From the NCBI RefSeq assembly GCF_001677475.2, contig NZ_CP015229.1: 64,000 bases of DNA. One strand, written 5' to 3'. Source of the DNA: Escherichia coli. GTDB lineage: Bacteria; Pseudomonadota; Gammaproteobacteria; Enterobacterales; Enterobacteriaceae. The translations under genes were made by a program, and so were the position numbers. Positions 3,926 to 61,403 of this stretch are shown piece after piece. The notes under the pieces were generated by a model. The model had not been told where the DNA came from and did not search any database. It saw only the letters and a program-made list of their open reading frames with translations. Numbering within the stretch: the first letter of the stretch is position 1; the number at the start of each line of letters is the position of its first letter.

Positions 3926-5638
3926 TTAATCCCACAAATCGCGCGCCGGATCGAGCACCGGGCGAATGATGCCCGCACGCACCGTAAAGTCGCCGAAGCC
4001 TTCACCCGCTTCGCGCTCTTTCGCCCAGCGCCCTATCAGTTCATCAAGCGACGCCAGGATTTCCGGTTCGGTGATGTTTTCTTTATACATCCGTGGGATA
4101 CGTGTCCCAATGCGGTTGCCGCCAAGATGCAGGTTGTAGCGACCCGGCGCTTTACCCACCAGGCCCACTTCCGCCAGCATCGCGCGACCACAACCGTTCG
4201 GGCAGCCTGTTACACGCATCACGATATGCTCATCGCTGACACCATGTTTCGCCATTAAATTATCGATGTTGTCGATAAAAGACGGCAGGAAACGCTCCGC
4301 TTCCGCCATCGCCAGCGGGCAAGTCGGGAATGACACGCAGGCCATTGAGTTTTCACGCTGCGGCGTGACGGCATTCATTAACCCGCTCTCTTTAGCGATC
4401 TTCTCGATCTTTGCTTTCTCACTTTCCGGCACACCGGCGATGATCAGATTCTGGTTCGCCGTAATGCGGAAATCACCTTTGTGGATCTTCGCGATCTCCA
4501 GCAGGCCGGTTTTCAGCGGACGCCCAGGATAATCAAGGATGCGACCATTTTCGATAAACAGCGTCAGGTGCCAGTTATCATCAATGCCTTTAACCCAGCC
4601 AATACGATCGCCACGTCCGGTAAATTCATACGGGCGGATAGGTTCGAACTTGACCCCCGCACGACGTTCCACTTCCGCTTTAAACGTCTCAATACCCACG
4701 CGCTCCAGCGTGTATTTGGTTTTGGCATTTTTACGATCGGTTCGATTACCCCAGTCACGCTGAGTCGTCACGACGGCTTCCGCCACCGCCAGCGTATGCT
4801 CCAGCGGCAGATAGCCAAACTCGCTCGCGGTGCGGGCGTAGGTTTTTTTGTTACCGTGTTCGATGGAAAGCCCACCGCCCACCAGCAGGTTAAAGCCCAC
4901 CAGCTTGCCGTTTTCGGCGATCGCCACGAAGTTCATGTCGTTGGCGTGCAGATCGATATCGTTCTGCGGCGGGATCACTACCGTGGTTTTGAATTTACGC
5001 GGCAAATAAGTCTGACCGAGGATCGGTTCTTCATCGGTGGTGGCGACTTTTTCCTGATCGAGCCAGATCTCCGCATACGCGCGGGTACGCGGCAGCAGAT
5101 GTTCAGATATTTTCTTCGCCCATTCATAAGCTTCCGCGTGCAGCTGCGACTCGTAAGGGTTCGAGGTGCAGAGTACGTTACGGTTCATGTCGTTAGCAGT
5201 CGCCAGCGCATCAAGACCGACCGAGTGCAGCATCTGGTGCACCGGTTTGACGTTCTTTTTCAGAATGCCGTGGAACTGAAACGTCTGGCGGTTGGTCAGG
5301 CGAATGCTGCCATAGATGGTGTTTTCACCGGCAAATTTGTCTATCGCCTGCCACTGTTTGGTGGTGATCACGCCACCCGGCAGACGGCAGCGCAACAGCA
5401 TCGCGTGGCGCGGCGCCAGCTTCTGTTCAGCACGTTCGGCGCGGATGTCGCGGTCATCCTGCTGATACATGCCGTGGAAGCGGATCAGCAGGAAGTTGTC
5501 GCCCTTAAAGCCGCCGGTCAGACCGTCGTTTAAATCTTCCGCAATGGTGCCGCGCAGGTAGTTGCTTTCAAGCTTCATGCGCTCGGCGTCTGTCAGTTTT
5601 CCTTCGACCACTAAAGGCCCTGGATGTTTTTCGCTCAT
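3926..5638 (-). CDS. cysI: sulfite reductase (NADPH) hemoprotein beta subunit
   Basis: 570-aa ORF; recognised CysI sequence with the C-terminal Cys cluster (TGCPNGCGR). Confidence 0.95.
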
Positions 5639-33175: not shown

Positions 33176-33250
33176 TGGACGTCTTGTCGAGTAGCAATCG
33201 GCTTTTTATGACGCTGGTTTCAGATTGGTGACAAAGTGCCTGTGTTTATG

Positions 33251-33285
33251 CCGGATGCGGCGTTAACGCCTTATCCGGCCTACAA
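33251..33285. repeat. REP element downstream of barA
   Basis: GCCGGATGCGGCGTTAACGCCTTATCCGGCCTACA palindrome. Confidence 0.7.
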
Positions 33286-47169: not shown

Positions 47170-47175
47170 CGGCGT

Positions 47176-47205
47176 GCCGGATACGGCGCAAACGTCGTAT
47201 CCGGC
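47176..47205. repeat. REP element between xni and fucO
   Basis: GCCGGATACGGCGCAAACGTCGTATCCGGC palindrome. Confidence 0.7.
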
Positions 47206-47223
47206 ATTATCACATCAGCGCAT

Positions 47224-49593: not shown

Positions 49594-50910
49594 ATGGGAA
49601 ACACATCAATACAAACGCAGAGTTACCGTGCGGTAGATAAAGATGCAGGGCAAAGCAGAAGTTACATTATTCCATTCGCGCTGCTGTGCTCACTGTTTTT
49701 TCTTTGGGCGGTAGCCAATAACCTTAACGACATTTTATTACCTCAATTCCAGCAGGCTTTTACGCTGACAAATTTCCAGGCTGGCCTGATCCAATCGGCC
49801 TTTTACTTTGGTTATTTCATTATCCCAATCCCTGCCGGGATATTGATGAAAAAACTCAGTTATAAAGCAGGGATTATTACCGGATTATTTTTATATGCCT
49901 TGGGCGCTGCATTATTCTGGCCCGCTGCAGAAATAATGAACTACACCTTATTTTTAGTTGGCCTATTTATTATTGCAGCCGGATTAGGTTGTCTGGAAAC
50001 TGCCGCAAACCCTTTTGTTACGGTATTAGGGCCGGAAAGCAGTGGTCACTTCCGCTTAAATCTTGCGCAAACATTTAACTCGTTTGGCGCAATTATCGCG
50101 GTTGTCTTTGGACAAAGTCTTATTTTGTCTAACGTGCCACATCAATCGCAAGACGTTCTCGATAAAATGTCTCCAGAGCAATTGAGTGCGTATAAACACA
50201 GCCTGGTATTATCGGTACAGACACCTTATATGATCATCGTGGCTATCGTGTTACTGGTCGCCCTGCTGATCATGCTGACGAAATTCCCAGCATTGCAGAG
50301 TGATAATCACAGTGACGCCAAACAAGGATCGTTCTCCGCATCGCTTTCTCGCCTGGCGCGTATTCGTCACTGGCGCTGGGCGGTATTAGCGCAATTCTGC
50401 TATGTCGGCGCACAAACGGCCTGCTGGAGCTATTTGATTCGCTACGCTGTAGAAGAAATTCCAGGTATGACTGCAGGCTTTGCCGCTAACTATTTAACCG
50501 GAACCATGGTGTGCTTCTTTATTGGTCGTTTCACCGGTACCTGGCTCATCAGTCGCTTCGCACCACACAAAGTCCTGGCCGCCTACGCATTAATCGCTAT
50601 GGCACTGTGCCTGATCTCAGCCTTCGCTGGCGGTCATGTGGGCTTAATAGCCCTGACTTTATGCAGCGCCTTTATGTCGATTCAGTACCCAACAATCTTC
50701 TCGCTGGGCATTAAGAATCTCGGCCAGGACACCAAATACGGTTCGTCCTTCATCGTTATGACCATCATTGGCGGCGGTATTGTCACTCCGGTCATGGGTT
50801 TTGTCAGTGACGCGGCGGGCAACATCCCCACTGCTGAACTGATCCCCGCACTCTGCTTCGCGGTCATCTTTATCTTTGCCCGTTTCCGTTCTCAAACGGC
50901 AACTAACTGA
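49594..50910 (+). CDS. fucP: L-fucose:H+ symporter
   Basis: 438-aa ORF MGNTSIQTQSYRAVDKDAGQSRSYIIPFALLCSLFFLWAVANNLNDILLPQFQQAF... Confidence 0.96.
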   Translation: MGNTSIQTQSYRAVDKDAGQSRSYIIPFALLCSLFFLWAVANNLNDILLPQFQQAFTLTNFQAGLIQSAFYFGYFIIPIPAGILMKKLSYKAGIITGLFLYALGAALFWPAAEIMNYTLFLVGLFIIAAGLGCLETAANPFVTVLGPESSGHFRLNLAQTFNSFGAIIAVVFGQSLILSNVPHQSQDVLDKMSPEQLSAYKHSLVLSVQTPYMIIVAIVLLVALLIMLTKFPALQSDNHSDAKQGSFSASLSRLARIRHWRWAVLAQFCYVGAQTACWSYLIRYAVEEIPGMTAGFAANYLTGTMVCFFIGRFTGTWLISRFAPHKVLAAYALIAMALCLISAFAGGHVGLIALTLCSAFMSIQYPTIFSLGIKNLGQDTKYGSSFIVMTIIGGGIVTPVMGFVSDAAGNIPTAELIPALCFAVIFIFARFRSQTATN

Positions 50911-50942: not shown

Positions 50943-52718
50943 ATGAAAAAAATCAGCTTACCGAAAATTGGTATCCGCCCGGTTATTGACGGTCGTCGCA
51001 TGGGTGTTCGTGAGTCGCTTGAAGAACAAACAATGAATATGGCGAAAGCTACGGCCGCACTGCTGACCGAGAAACTGCGCCATGCCTGCGGAGCTGCCGT
51101 CGAGTGTGTCATTTCCGATACCTGTATCGCGGGTATGGCTGAAGCCGCTGCTTGCGAAGAAAAATTCAGCAGTCAGAATGTAGGCCTCACCATTACGGTA
51201 ACCCCTTGCTGGTGCTATGGCAGTGAAACCATCGACATGGATCCAACCCGCCCGAAAGCCATTTGGGGCTTTAACGGCACTGAACGCCCCGGTGCTGTTT
51301 ACCTGGCAGCGGCTCTGGCAGCTCACAGCCAGAAAGGCATCCCGGCATTCTCCATTTACGGTCATGACGTTCAGGATGCCGATGACACATCGATTCCTGC
51401 CGATGTTGAAGAAAAACTGCTGCGCTTTGCCCGCGCCGGTTTGGCCGTCGCCAGCATGAAAGGTAAAAGCTATCTGTCGCTGGGCGGCGTTTCGATGGGT
51501 ATCGCCGGTTCCATTGTTGATCACAACTTCTTTGAATCCTGGCTGGGAATGAAAGTCCAGGCGGTGGATATGACCGAACTGCGTCGCCGTATCGATCAGA
51601 AGATTTACGACGAAGCCGAACTGGAAATGGCGCTGGCCTGGGCTGATAAAAACTTCCGCTATGGCGAAGATGAAAATAACAAACAGTATCAACGCAATGC
51701 CGAGCAAAGCCGCGCAGTTCTGCGAGAAAGTTTACTGATGGCGATGTGTATCCGCGACATGATGCAAGGCAACAGCAAACTGGCCGATATTGGTCGCGTG
51801 GAAGAATCACTTGGCTACAACGCCATCGCTGCGGGCTTCCAGGGACAACGTCACTGGACCGATCAATATCCCAATGGCGACACCGCCGAAGCGATCCTTA
51901 ACAGTTCATTTGACTGGAATGGCGTGCGTGAACCCTTCGTCGTGGCGACCGAAAACGACAGTCTTAACGGCGTGGCAATGCTAATGGGCCACCAGCTCAC
52001 CGGTACCGCTCAGGTATTTGCCGATGTGCGTACCTACTGGTCACCAGAAGCAATTGAACGTGTAACGGGGCATAAACTGGATGGACTGGCAGAACACGGC
52101 ATCATCCATTTGATCAACTCCGGTTCTGCTGCGTTGGACGGTTCCTGTAAACAACGCGACAGCGAAGGTAACCCGACGATGAAGCCACACTGGGAAATCT
52201 CTCAGCAAGAGGCTGACGCTTGCCTCGCCGCTACCGAATGGTGCCCGGCGATCCACGAATACTTCCGTGGCGGCGGTTACTCTTCTCGCTTCCTTACCGA
52301 AGGCGGCGTCCCGTTCACTATGACTCGTGTCAACATCATCAAAGGCCTGGGACCGGTACTGCAAATCGCGGAAGGCTGGAGTGTTGAGTTACCGAAGGAT
52401 GTGCATGACATCCTCAACAAACGCACCAACTCAACCTGGCCAACCACCTGGTTTGCACCACGTCTCACCGGTAAAGGGCCGTTTACGGATGTGTACTCGG
52501 TAATGGCGAACTGGGGCGCTAACCACGGGGTTCTGACCATCGGCCACGTTGGCGCAGACTTTATCACTCTCGCCTCCATGCTGCGTATCCCGGTATGTAT
52601 GCACAACGTTGAAGAGACCAAAGTGTATCGTCCTTCTGCCTGGGCCGCGCACGGCATGGATATTGAAGGCCAGGATTATCGCGCTTGCCAGAACTACGGC
52701 CCGTTGTACAAGCGTTAA
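50943..52718 (+). CDS. fucI: L-fucose isomerase
   Basis: 591-aa [39 protein letters not shown]... Confidence 0.97.
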
Positions 52719-52826
52719 TACATTACTCCCTGATGTGATGCCCGGTCGCTCCGGCTATCGGGCCTGAACAAGCAAGAGTGGTTAGCCGGATAAGCAATGT
52801 TATCCGGCTATATTGCAGGAGCGATT

Positions 52827-54245
52827 ATGAAACAAGAAGTTATCCTGGTACTCGACTGTGGCGCGACCAATGTCAGGGCCATCGCGGTTAATCGGCAGGG
52901 AAAAATTGTTGCCCGCGCCTCAACGCCTAATGCCAGCGATATCGCGATGGAAAACAACACCTGGCACCAGTGGTCTTTAGACGCCATTTTGCAACGCTTT
53001 GCTGATTGCTGTCGGCAAATCAATAGTGAACTGACTGATTGCCACATCCGCGGTATCGCCGTCACCACCTTTGGTGTGGATGGCGCTCTGGTAGATAAGC
53101 AAGGCAATCTGCTCTATCCGATCATTAGCTGGAAATGTCCGCGAACAGCAGCGGTAATGGACAATATTGAACGGTTGATCTCCGCACAGCAGTTGCAGAC
53201 TATTTCTGGTGTCGGAGCCTTTAGTTTCAATACGTTATATAAATTGGTGTGGTTGAAAGAAAATTATCCACAACTGCTGGAACGCGCGCACGCCTGGCTC
53301 TTTATTTCGTCGCTGATTAACCACCGTTTAACCGGCGAATTCACTACTGATATCACGATGGCCGGAACCAGCCAGATGCTGGATATCCAGCAACGCGATT
53401 TCAGTCCGCAAATTTTACACGCCACCGGTATTCCACGCCGACTCTTCCCTCGTCTGGTGGAAGCGGGTGAACAGATTGGTACGTTACAGAACAGCGCCGC
53501 AGCAATGCTCGGCTTACCCGTTGGCATACCGGTGATTTCCGCAGGTCACGATACCCAGTTCGCCCTTTTTGGCGCTGGTGCCGAACAAAATGAACCCGTG
53601 CTCTCTTCCGGTACATGGGAAATTTTAATGGTCCGTAGCGCCCAGGTTGATACTTCGCTGTTAAGTCAGTACGCCGGTTCTACCTGCGAGCTGGATAGCC
53701 AGGCAGGGTTGTATAACCCAGGTATGCAATGGCTGGCATCCGGCGTGCTGGAATGGGTGAGAAAACTGTTCTGGACGGCTGAAACTCCCTGGCAAATATT
53801 GATTGAAGAAGCTCGCCTGATCGCGCCTGGCGCAGATGGAGTGAAAATGCAGTGTGATTTATTGTCGTGCCAGAACGCTGGCTGGCAAGGAGTGACGCTT
53901 AATACCACGCGGGGGCATTTCTATCGCGCGGCGCTGGAAGGGTTAACCACGCAATTACAGCGCAATCTACAGATGCTGGAAAAAATCGGGCACTTTAAAG
54001 CCTCTGAATTATTGTTAGTCGGCGGAGGAAGTCGCAACACATTGTGGAATCAGATTAAAGCCAATATGCTTGATATTCCGGTAAAAGTTCTCGACGATGC
54101 CGAAACGACCGTCGCAGGAGCTGCGCTGTTCGGTTGGTATGGCGTAGGGGAATTTAACAGCCCGGAAGAAGCCCGCGCGCAGATTCATTATCAGTACCGT
54201 TATTTCTACCCGCAAACTGAACCTGAATTTATAGAGGAAGTGTGA
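52827..54245 (+). CDS. fucK: L-fuculokinase (FGGY family)
   Basis: Frame shared with ORF-track entry 52797..54245; I place the start at ATG 52827 ([17 protein letters not shown]...) because AGGAG sits 5 nt upstream, whereas ATG 52797 has no RBS and lies in the loop of a 10-bp palindrome. The 52797 start remains possible. Confidence 0.9.
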
Positions 54246-54246
54246 A

Positions 54247-54660
54247 ATGCTGAAAACAATTTCGCCGTTAATTTCTCCCGAACTATTGAAAGTGCTGGCA
54301 GAGATGGGGCATGGAGATGAAATTATTTTTTCCGATGCTCACTTTCCCGCCCATTCGATGGGACCGCAGGTGATCCGCGCTGATGGCCTGTTGGTGAGCG
54401 ACTTGCTCCAGGCGATTATCCCGTTATTTGAGCTGGACAGTTATGCACCACCGCTGGTGATGATGGCGGCGGTAGAAGGTGACACTCTCGATCCTGAAGT
54501 AGAACGACGTTATCGTAATGCGCTTTCACTACAAGCCCCCTGTCCTGACATCATCCGCATCAATCGTTTTGCGTTTTATGAACGGGCGCAAAAAGCCTTT
54601 GCGATCGTTATCACAGGCGAACGAGCGAAGTACGGGAATATTCTTTTAAAAAAGGGGTAA
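54247..54660 (+). CDS. fucU: L-fucose mutarotase
   Basis: 137-aa [45 protein letters not shown]... ending ...ILLKKG. Confidence 0.9.
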
Positions 54661-61223: not shown

Positions 61224-61403
61224 GAGGTTATCCCTCACCCTAAACGCATAAATGCCTGATGCGCTACGCTTATCAGGCCTACATAACTCCTGCAATATTT
61301 TGGATTTGCATGAGTTGTAGGCCGGATAAGGCGTTCACGCCGCATCCGGCATGAACCACGCGCACTTAGTCAATAATCAGGATGAGAGGTTATCCCTCAC
61401 CCT
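61224..61403. repeat. BIME (two REP palindromes) flanked by perfect 18-bp direct repeats
   Basis: Direct repeats GAGGTTATCCCTCACCCT at 61224-61241 and 61386-61403; between them REP GCCTGATGCGCTACGCTTATCAGGCCTACA (61254-61283) and REP TAGGCCGGATAAGGCGTTCACGCCGCATCCGGC (61318-61350). Confidence 0.75.

Follow-up and report, generated by a model that had tools for sequence, protein, structure and literature searches.

The perfect palindrome that lies a short distance upstream of fucK in Escherichia coli is very probably a derivative of a REP, and is probably the 3′ member of a decayed REP pair, that is, of a BIME remnant, in the fucI–fucK spacer. The second of these gradings covers our best explanation as a whole, in which the BIME remnant would be an immobile fossil and a barrier within the mRNA, with fucK initiated independently; the parts of this explanation are graded below. 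The identity of the palindrome and its homology to canonical REPs are plain from the comparisons presented here. The palindrome is a derivative, and not a canonical REP, because two features that define REPs, the GTAG motif and an imperfect stem, are both missing. Its existence is confirmed, and it turns out to be an ordinary feature. Already established are REPs and BIMEs, their effects on mRNA, and the start of the 472-residue FucK; only the recognition of the fuc hairpin pair as a decayed BIME may be new. Our literature search returned no paper linking fucI or fucK to REP or BIME, no paper on the mapping of the fucK start, and no paper on the expression, RNA 3′ ends or mRNA decay of the fuc operon or on the fucPIKUR spacer.

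The sequence that we analysed, referred to here as the window, is a stretch of 64,000 nucleotides from contig NZ_CP015229.1 that carries the fucPIKUR operon together with fucA, the latter on the minus strand. On the basis of the list of open reading frames and of RefSeq and K-12 annotation of matching loci, fucP occupies positions 49594–50910; fucI, which encodes L-fucose isomerase (C-terminus ...NYGPLYKR*), occupies positions 50943–52718 of the plus strand, as judged from the same list and RefSeq annotation of matching E. coli loci. The gene for L-fuculokinase, fucK (52827–54245, plus strand; 472 aa), is placed by RefSeq and K-12 annotation and corresponds to FUCK_ECOLI in UniRef; fucU and the activator gene fucR follow it in the operon. 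From fucP to fucR, K-12 and the window are 98.5% identical. The fucI–fucK spacer, between the fucI stop codon (52716–52718) and the fucK start at 52827, measures 108 nt.

Identity of the hairpins in the fucI–fucK spacer

The palindrome, which we call hairpin 2 (52783–52810, plus strand; TAGCCGGATAA-GCAATG-TTATCCGGCTA) and assign as a degenerate y-type REP, was delineated by reading of the sequence, with a repeat finder and by folding. Its arms (52783–52793 and 52800–52810) were found by the repeat finder to be 100% complementary and to form an 11-bp stem; the perfect inverted repeat that the initial annotation had placed at 52784–52793/52800–52809 thus holds up, with a stem one base pair longer than had been noted. 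The loop, GCAATG (52794–52799), ends in an ATG (52797–52799), and hairpin 2 folded alone as RNA has a predicted free energy of −16.7 kcal/mol. In 100 dinucleotide shuffles of the window, hairpins whose stem is perfect over 11 bp or more and whose loop measures 3–10 nt arose 0.16 times per shuffled window on average, and at most 3 times. When perfect stems of 10 bp or more are counted, the real window has some 10 separate hairpin loci, the majority of them terminators and REPs. Hairpin 2 is therefore far beyond chance, although intergenic hairpins of its class are common.

Several features place hairpin 2 with the REPs. The motif GCCGGATAA occurs seven times in the window against 0.57 expected, and two other sites that carry it are canonical REPs, at 33250–33283 (GCCGGATGCGGCGTTAACGCCTTATCCGGCCTAC) and at 61317–61350 (GTAGGCCGGATAAGGCGTTCACGCCGCATCCGGC). 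In addition, the y-REP frame GCCGGAT-N(8-24)-ATCCGGC has four matches in the window against 0 expected; one is hairpin 2 and the others are three REP-type hairpins, two of them canonical REPs (33250, 61321). The 10-mer GCCGGATAAG is common to hairpin 2 and y REPs, such that the conserved foot, with AAG after the 5′ arm, is present, and the location between the fucI stop and the fucK start is extragenic, as is that of REPs. Other features set it apart. A REP has been defined as an imperfect palindrome of 30–40 nt with a conserved two-base mismatch and a GTAG 5′ of the foot (PMC3333891). The body of hairpin 2 is 24 nt long (28 nt with the outer pairs), as against 30 nt in y REPs, and its stem is perfect, with AA opposite TT where REPs have the mismatch. 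Where relatives read TGTAGGCCGG Escherichia reads GGTTAGCCGG, without GTAG 5′ of the palindrome foot, and GTAG occurs nowhere in the fucI–fucK spacer of the window. Nor is hairpin 2 a high-copy element: the variant occupies a median of one place per genome, and the foot motif alone is repeated.

Upstream of hairpin 2, and separated from it by a 19-nt linker (52764–52782, plus strand) that varies in length and sequence among genera in the spacer alignment, lies a second stem-loop, hairpin 1 (52740–52763, plus strand; GCCCGGT...AYCGGGC), which folds at −14.8 kcal/mol and which we take to be the iREP-like half of the decayed BIME, its flanking CTAC having become CTGA. In the spacer alignment hairpin 1 and the GCCCGGTGGCGCAAGCTTACCGGGCCTAC of Klebsiella and Citrobacter line up column for column; in pair counts on the alignment 95.8% of the cells of hairpin 1 are paired, and two of its pairs show double-sided changes. 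The iREP-like hairpin 1, the linker and the REP-like hairpin 2 together form the arrangement of a BIME, homologous to the ...CTAC-linker-GTAG... pairs of relatives. Among the defined BIME classes, BIME-1 has the L linker and an IHF site, and BIME-2 has y/z2 and the S linker; judged by eye, hairpin 1 fits none of the y, z1 and z2 types, and neither L nor S can be recognised in the linker.

The homology was established by comparison of the window with the fucK loci of 42 other enterobacterial species (n = 43), from each of which the fucI–fucK spacer was extracted; 27 spacers were aligned. Most spacers of Klebsiella, Citrobacter and Salmonella, together with that of Raoultella planticola, contain a canonical inverted REP pair, for example GCCCGGTGGCGCAAGCTTACCGGGCCTAC - linker - GTAGGCCGGATAAGCGCAGCGCCATCCGGC. 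In the alignment hairpin 2 falls on the second REP of these pairs (GTAGGCCGGATAAGCGCAGCGCCATCCGGC in relatives) and hairpin 1 on the first, so that both the alignment and the pair counts support positional homology to canonical REPs. Pairing of the 7-bp cores is retained in 96–100% of the aligned sequences, whereas the AA/TT pairs and the outer T-A/A-T pairs are found only in Escherichia; because the REP cores hardly vary, the pair counts say little more than that the structure has been retained. In Citrobacter sp. NCU1 the site reads GCCGGATAAGCGCAATGCCATCCGGC; a 2-nt deletion together with a change of CC to TT would turn this sequence into the E. coli hairpin. The flanking tetranucleotides have decayed in Escherichia (CTAC to CTGA and GTAG to GTTAG), and in hairpin 2 of E. 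coli the upper stem is lost and the AA/GC mismatch is now AA/TT.

A strong hairpin, be it a BIME, a single REP or another GC stem, is present in 43/43 spacers, and the type of element differs by lineage. A single REP is found in C. sedlakii and E. whittamii; a terminator-like GC stem followed by a T-run in Raoultella terrigena, Enterobacter sp. 10-1, Raoultella sp. BIGb0138 and Symbiopectobacterium; a GC stem with no clear T-run in Kluyvera and others; and a different long inverted repeat in two Citrobacter. The spacer of Escherichia whittamii, at 54 nt, contains hairpin 1 only, and hairpin 2 is therefore dispensable within the genus. Either the site already carried a REP pair in the ancestor shared by Escherichia, Citrobacter, Klebsiella and Salmonella, or REPs have re-occupied it repeatedly. 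In Escherichia both copies would then have lost GTAG/CTAC, and the second copy would in addition have lost its upper stem and exchanged the AA/GC mismatch for AA/TT pairs, resulting in the perfect 11-bp stem. That different genera have REPs at this site need not mean a conserved function, since a permissive spacer could have received such insertions more than once.

Annotation has little bearing on this assignment. A scan of positions 52000–53600 against Rfam at a permissive threshold gave no match at the hairpin and two chance-level matches elsewhere (E = 0.58 and 3.3), both far below gathering scores. The K-12 record contains no REP features anywhere, even at canonical REPs, and because it omits these, the lack of a REP annotation at the fuc spacer is uninformative.

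The behaviour of mobile elements at hairpin 2 agrees in one respect with that expected of a REP and is predicted to differ in another. Strain BH100 (NZ_CP025251.1) carries IS1397, of the IS3 family, inside hairpin 2 (positions 4085–5516 of locus L049), flanked by a duplication of GTTA that corresponds to 52799–52802. A passage of PMC1525189 (citing Clement 1999 and Wilde 2001/2003) states that IS1397 inserts specifically into REP/palindromic units; hairpin 2 is, in this single natural case, the target of a REP-specific insertion sequence. TnpA-REP, the RAYT of E. coli, requires GTAG and a two-base mismatch in the stem (Ton-Hoang et al., PMC3333891), and when a y REP was made perfect by a GC-to-TT change its binding and cleavage by TnpA-REP were abolished (PMC3333891). 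Since hairpin 2 bears both disabling changes, it is predicted to be neither bound nor cut by TnpA-REP, and would be an immobile fossil copy, invisible to TnpA-REP/RAYT.

Recognition of hairpin 2 by IS1397 takes place at the level of DNA, as would the activity of the element if gyrase, Pol I, IHF or another protein were to engage it as a duplex or cruciform and act thereby on chromosome structure. Binding of proteins at the DNA level has been reported for REPs and BIMEs. However, no IHF consensus stands out in the linker, and the hairpin is a degenerate variant found at a single locus; we consider a DNA-level role very unlikely.

The start codon of fucK

The reading frame of fucK is open from the ATG within the loop of hairpin 2 (52797–52799, plus strand), which would yield a protein of 482 aa, as well as from the ATG at 52827, which yields one of 472 aa. 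We regard it as close to certain that fucK starts at ATG 52827. This start is preceded by the Shine-Dalgarno sequence AGGAG (52817–52821, plus strand) and the 5-nt spacer CGATT; both the presence of ATG 52797 in the loop and the distance of 5 nt from AGGAG to ATG 52827, as initially described, are borne out by the sequence. Six nucleotides separate the end of the hairpin 2 stem from the Shine-Dalgarno sequence, which the stem does not occlude. In the PGAP annotation and in the curated K-12 record (NP_417283.2), fucK is a gene of 1419 nt and 472 aa that starts 109 nt after the last base of fucI, i.e. at 52827 of the window. The 472-aa form is found in at least 1000 contigs and is FUCK_ECOLI in UniRef; the 482-aa form is found in 45 contigs, mostly older GenBank records.

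The comparative evidence points the same way. The ATG aligned to 52827 is invariant in 43/43 sequences, nearly all of which have a Shine-Dalgarno sequence of the GGAG or GGGAG type 5–8 nt upstream of it (the exceptions have CAGGGG or GGGGGAG), and conservation of the FucK protein (MK[QNK][DE]...) begins across the 43 sequences exactly at the residue encoded by ATG 52827. Apart from the sequences whose spacer is of the E. coli type, only three Citrobacter sp. genomes have the in-frame ATG ten codons upstream, and in these it is likewise part of a REP loop; E. albertii, with the loop GCCATA, does not have it, and at 11 of the 42 orthologous loci no in-frame start of any kind lies upstream. Solved FGGY kinases begin 3–7 residues before the position aligned to residues 13–16 of the 482-aa form, such that the ten-residue extension has no counterpart among them, including the FucK of S. 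pneumoniae (4c23). Finally, the predicted cost of opening the region from −18 to +13 around the start is 20.5 kcal/mol for ATG 52797 and 7.4 kcal/mol for ATG 52827, and no Shine-Dalgarno sequence precedes ATG 52797.

That FucK truly starts at ATG 52797, with hairpin 2 regulating that start, has in its favour the open frame and the 482-aa entries of older GenBank records. Against it stand the missing Shine-Dalgarno sequence and the opening cost of 20.5 kcal/mol, the loss of the ATG in E. albertii and of any in-frame upstream start at 11 orthologous loci, an extension unmatched in solved FGGY kinases, and the agreement of curated K-12, PGAP and UniRef on 472 aa; we find this alternative barely credible. 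ATG 52797 is thus very probably unused, and the ATG in the loop is an accident of the loop sequence. The comparative and thermodynamic evidence confirms the 472-aa start of current annotation and marks the legacy 482-aa start as an artefact, due to an ATG that lies in a REP loop. The initial annotation had preferred the downstream start, and annotation, invariance in 43/43 sequences and opening costs support that preference. It had also seen in the hairpin a device at the fucK start codon, in which respect we differ: hairpin 2 is a degenerate REP, and E. albertii lacks the loop ATG. As for the proposal that the hairpin modulates fucI–fucK coupling, the gap between the genes is 108 nt, and therefore there is no termination–reinitiation coupling for hairpin 2 to modulate.

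Possible roles of the hairpin pair

A looser form of the coupling idea, in which the hairpin sets the ratio of fucI to fucK expression through the stability of the mRNA, is plausible. In particular, we tentatively suggest, as a reading with slightly less than an even chance, that the two hairpins form a barrier to 3′ exonucleases that keeps fucPI mRNA above fucKUR mRNA. Following an endonucleolytic cleavage downstream, both hairpins (−14.8 and −16.7 kcal/mol) would block 3′-to-5′ exonucleases, such that the fucP–fucI segment would outlive the fucKUR segment, as with the malE–malF REPs, whereas fucK would be translated by independent initiation at its own exposed AGGAG and ATG 52827. Burial of the accidental ATG 52797 by hairpin 2 would be a side effect. 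A stable stem-loop is indeed found at the 3′ boundary of the upstream cistron. The minimum free energy (MFE) of the 108-nt spacer has a z-score of −4.0 against mononucleotide shuffles, and that of positions 52719–52860 a z-score of −2.84 against dinucleotide shuffles. Protective hairpins of this kind are described for malEFG and other operons in a passage of PMC5927463, and shielding of the upstream segment from 3′-to-5′ exonucleases is the best-documented role of intercistronic hairpins such as these. If the hairpins set the FucI:FucK ratio, they would be relevant to engineering of the fuc operon in which its genes are deleted or rearranged, for example for the production of fuculose, 2′-fucosyllactose or propanediol.

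Nearly as likely as the mRNA barrier is a neutral relic: the hairpins would be leftovers of a selfish REP/BIME insertion that play no part in fuc expression and persist only since E. coli is young and the spacer tolerant. The loss of the features recognised by RAYT accords with such a relic, as do the lack of hairpin 2 in E. whittamii and the quite different spacer elements of other genera, and one strain, BH100, tolerates a 1.4-kb IS1397 within hairpin 2. On the other hand, a strong stem-loop has been kept in 43/43 spacers despite turnover of the sequence families, and the mutations that removed the mismatch raised the stability of the stem rather than degrading it.

Variation within Escherichia bears on the same choice. 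The 60-mer at 52775–52834 is present exactly in 4584 of 5423 complete E. coli genomes; a further 478 of the 5423 differ only by the loop change G52794A, the only common polymorphism within hairpin 2, and 324 only by T52826C. The stem is accordingly intact in at least 5386 of the 5423 (at least 99%). Among nine Escherichia sequences, 15 spacer positions vary, including 3 of the 6 loop positions and 0 of the 22 stem positions (P = 0.025 for no variable position in the stem), a distribution that argues against a neutral relic and weakly fits a selected RNA stem. However, identity across E. coli reaches at least 97% over the entire spacer, so that the test of stem constraint has low power and conservation of the stem is itself only weakly informative, a point in favour of the relic.

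The hairpins might instead act as a transcription attenuator, by making transcription pause or terminate in part, intrinsically or through Rho, between fucI and fucK, as Espeli et al. reportedly described in 2001 for BIMEs within operons. In Raoultella, Enterobacter sp. 10-1 and Symbiopectobacterium the spacer has a GC stem with a T-run that resembles an intrinsic terminator; reduced read-through may therefore be the conserved trait at this junction. In E. coli, however, no T-run follows the hairpins (the tail after hairpin 2 is TATATTGC, unlike that of an intrinsic terminator), and read-through is required for fucK, fucU and the activator gene fucR, which lie downstream. Promoter and terminator scans of positions 52300–53200 returned no sites and thus support neither a promoter for fucK within the operon nor an intrinsic terminator, and we count against attenuation both the negative terminator scan and the failure to find an internal promoter-like site. 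We judge an attenuator unlikely.

Proximity to the ribosome-binding site raises the further possibility of translational control, in which hairpin 2, positioned in the standby region (−44 to −17), and an anti-Shine-Dalgarno sequence in hairpin 1 would jointly tune or switch fucK initiation, a stronger form of the idea in the initial annotation. The stem of hairpin 2 ends 6 nt before AGGAG, and in many genera the distance from the REP foot to GGAG is 8–9 nt. Moreover, the loop of hairpin 1 contains TCGCTCC (52746–52752, plus strand), a speculative anti-Shine-Dalgarno sequence that is an exact 7-nt complement of GGAGCGA (52818–52824) and may be due to chance; the sole substitution there, a C to T in one locus (L005), keeps the pairing as G.U. 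Nevertheless, the Shine-Dalgarno sequence and the start lie outside hairpin 2, and the cost of opening them is a modest 7.4 kcal/mol; a nested fold that uses the TCGCTCC/GGAGCGA pairing lies 4.6 kcal/mol above the MFE; and no Rfam match was found at the hairpin. In addition, a 7-nt complement as good is found in 4.4% of shuffled spacers, and the match is restricted to Escherichia with the E. coli-type spacer, being absent from E. whittamii and other genera, on which grounds we demoted the anti-Shine-Dalgarno idea to speculation. We know of no ligand or sensor element for the fuc spacer. Taken together, we consider a translational regulator quite unlikely.

More specific, and highly improbable in our estimation, is a scenario in which the decayed REP pair has been domesticated, in Escherichia alone, to regulate fucK. 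With its perfect stem, hairpin 2 would insulate the ribosome-binding site and the loop of hairpin 1 would pair transiently with GGAGCGA at the Shine-Dalgarno sequence, such that translation of fucK would depend on folding of the spacer, for example as influenced by ribosomes terminating at fucI or by processing between the hairpins. If true, a fossil mobile repeat would have been turned into a cis-acting translational switch.

Comparison with known systems

With intrinsic terminators the fuc element shares a stable, GC-rich stem-loop downstream of a gene, and true terminator-like hairpins occupy the spacers of some relatives; it differs from them in that neither E. coli hairpin has a T-run, and the terminator scan was negative. 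The location of the hairpins downstream of a stop codon within an operon also recalls the down-regulation of translation by REPs near stop codons. For that effect a REP reportedly must lie within about 15 nt of the stop codon, as Liang, Rudd and Deutscher are said to have found in 2015. In the fuc spacer hairpin 1 begins 21 nt, and hairpin 2 64 nt, after the fucI stop, and a mechanism of the Liang type is therefore probably inapplicable.

The barrier that we favour most resembles the REP stabiliser of malE–malF. In both cases REP-type hairpins follow a promoter-proximal gene of an operon for sugar utilisation, and the downstream gene has its own Shine-Dalgarno sequence. The malE–malF intercistronic REP is reported to protect the upstream segment, in work attributed to Newbury in 1987. 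Protection of the upstream segment was measured for mal, whereas the fuc element is a decayed REP with a putative role.

By structure and position, the closest relatives of the fuc hairpins are the y-type REPs and BIMEs (Stern 1984; Gilson and Bachellier; Ton-Hoang 2012, PMC3333891), with which they share an extragenic location and the GCCGGATAAG...ATCCGGC foot. As in a BIME, hairpin 2 has an inverted REP-like partner on the other side of a short linker, and the two are placed exactly where relatives carry canonical REP pairs; as a REP would be, the site is a target of IS1397. Yet the body of hairpin 2 is 24 nt and not 30 nt, its stem is perfect and not AA/GC-mismatched, GTTAG stands for GTAG and CTGA for CTAC, and the element is a single-copy variant predicted to remain unbound and uncut by TnpA-REP. 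The fuc spacer offers a natural example of REP decay, in which the GTAG and the mismatch have been lost and the stem has been kept or even improved, in an element that is still hit by IS1397.

Hairpin 1 and the fucK Shine-Dalgarno region

The loop of hairpin 1 (52740-52763), the upstream of the two hairpins in the 108-nt fucI-fucK spacer, contains the heptamer TCGCTCC (52746-52752), which is exactly complementary to GGAGCGA (52818-52824) in the Shine-Dalgarno region of fucK. The single natural substitution found within TCGCTCC is a C-to-T change that retains pairing as G.U, and the complementarity itself is borderline with respect to chance, being equalled in 4.4% of shuffles. At position 52758 the window carries a T where all sampled E. 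coli carry a C, and a G-C pair of hairpin 1 thereby becomes G.U. The adjoining position, 52757, is also polymorphic (A; O157:H7 has G and strain 2013C-4282 has T). When the segment 52719-52860 was compared with 5,424 complete E. coli genomes, an identical match was found in none of them, the best match being 99.3%.

The fucI-fucK spacer in other genomes and the downstream junction

In E. coli BH100 (NZ_CP025251.1), a 1.4-kb IS1397 lies inside the fucI-fucK hairpin (positions 4085-5516 of the fetched fucK locus, L049), oriented like the operon itself and with the target duplication GTTA, such that fucI and fucK are set apart by the element. The spacer is disrupted in up to 3 of 5,424 genomes.

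Spacers of 51-54 nt, located just upstream of locus position 2501, occur in Enterobacter sp. 10-1, Raoultella terrigena, Raoultella sp. BIGb0138 and Symbiopectobacterium (loci L024, L025, L039 and L042), and are made up of a GC stem-loop with a T-run on its 3' side, a terminator-like arrangement immediately 5' of the fucK Shine-Dalgarno sequence. The spacers of Citrobacter amalonaticus S646 and Citrobacter sp. MGH106 (L011 and L043, again upstream of 2501) are 183 and 118 nt long and contain no REPs; in their place is an element of a different kind, which has the long inverted repeat GCAGGACAAAAA...TTTTTGTCCTGC and may be another small mobile repeat. A 382-bp contig labelled 'Agrococcus sp.' (L045), whose encoded FucK fragment matches the query at 99% identity, is likely contamination, and a contig labelled Serratia marcescens 1001295B (L010), with a fuc spacer of the Citrobacter/Klebsiella type, may be mislabelled.

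Whereas the fucI-fucK spacer is long and structured, only 1 nt separates the end of fucK (54245) from the start of fucU (54247), a close spacing of the sort typically seen with translational coupling. At the 3' end of fucU (about 54647-54652), six consecutive A residues are present in the window as opposed to seven in K-12, so that FucU ends in ...LLKKG* (137 aa) rather than ...LLKKGVTP* (140 aa); this difference could reflect either a genuine indel in the homopolymer or an error in sequencing.

REP-type hairpins elsewhere in the window

As reference REP copies we used a canonical y REP in the barA/gudD spacer (33250-33283) and, in the tcdA/mltA spacer (about 61262-61355), a BIME comprising a z-type inverted REP and a y REP with GTAG. 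A y-REP-like hairpin, TGCCGGATACGGCGCAAACGTCGTATCCGGCA, is also present in the gap that separates ygdG/xni from the convergently oriented fucO (47175-47206); it is a perfect palindrome with an 11-bp perfect stem and, like the fuc hairpin (52783-52810), lacks the stem mismatch usual in REPs.
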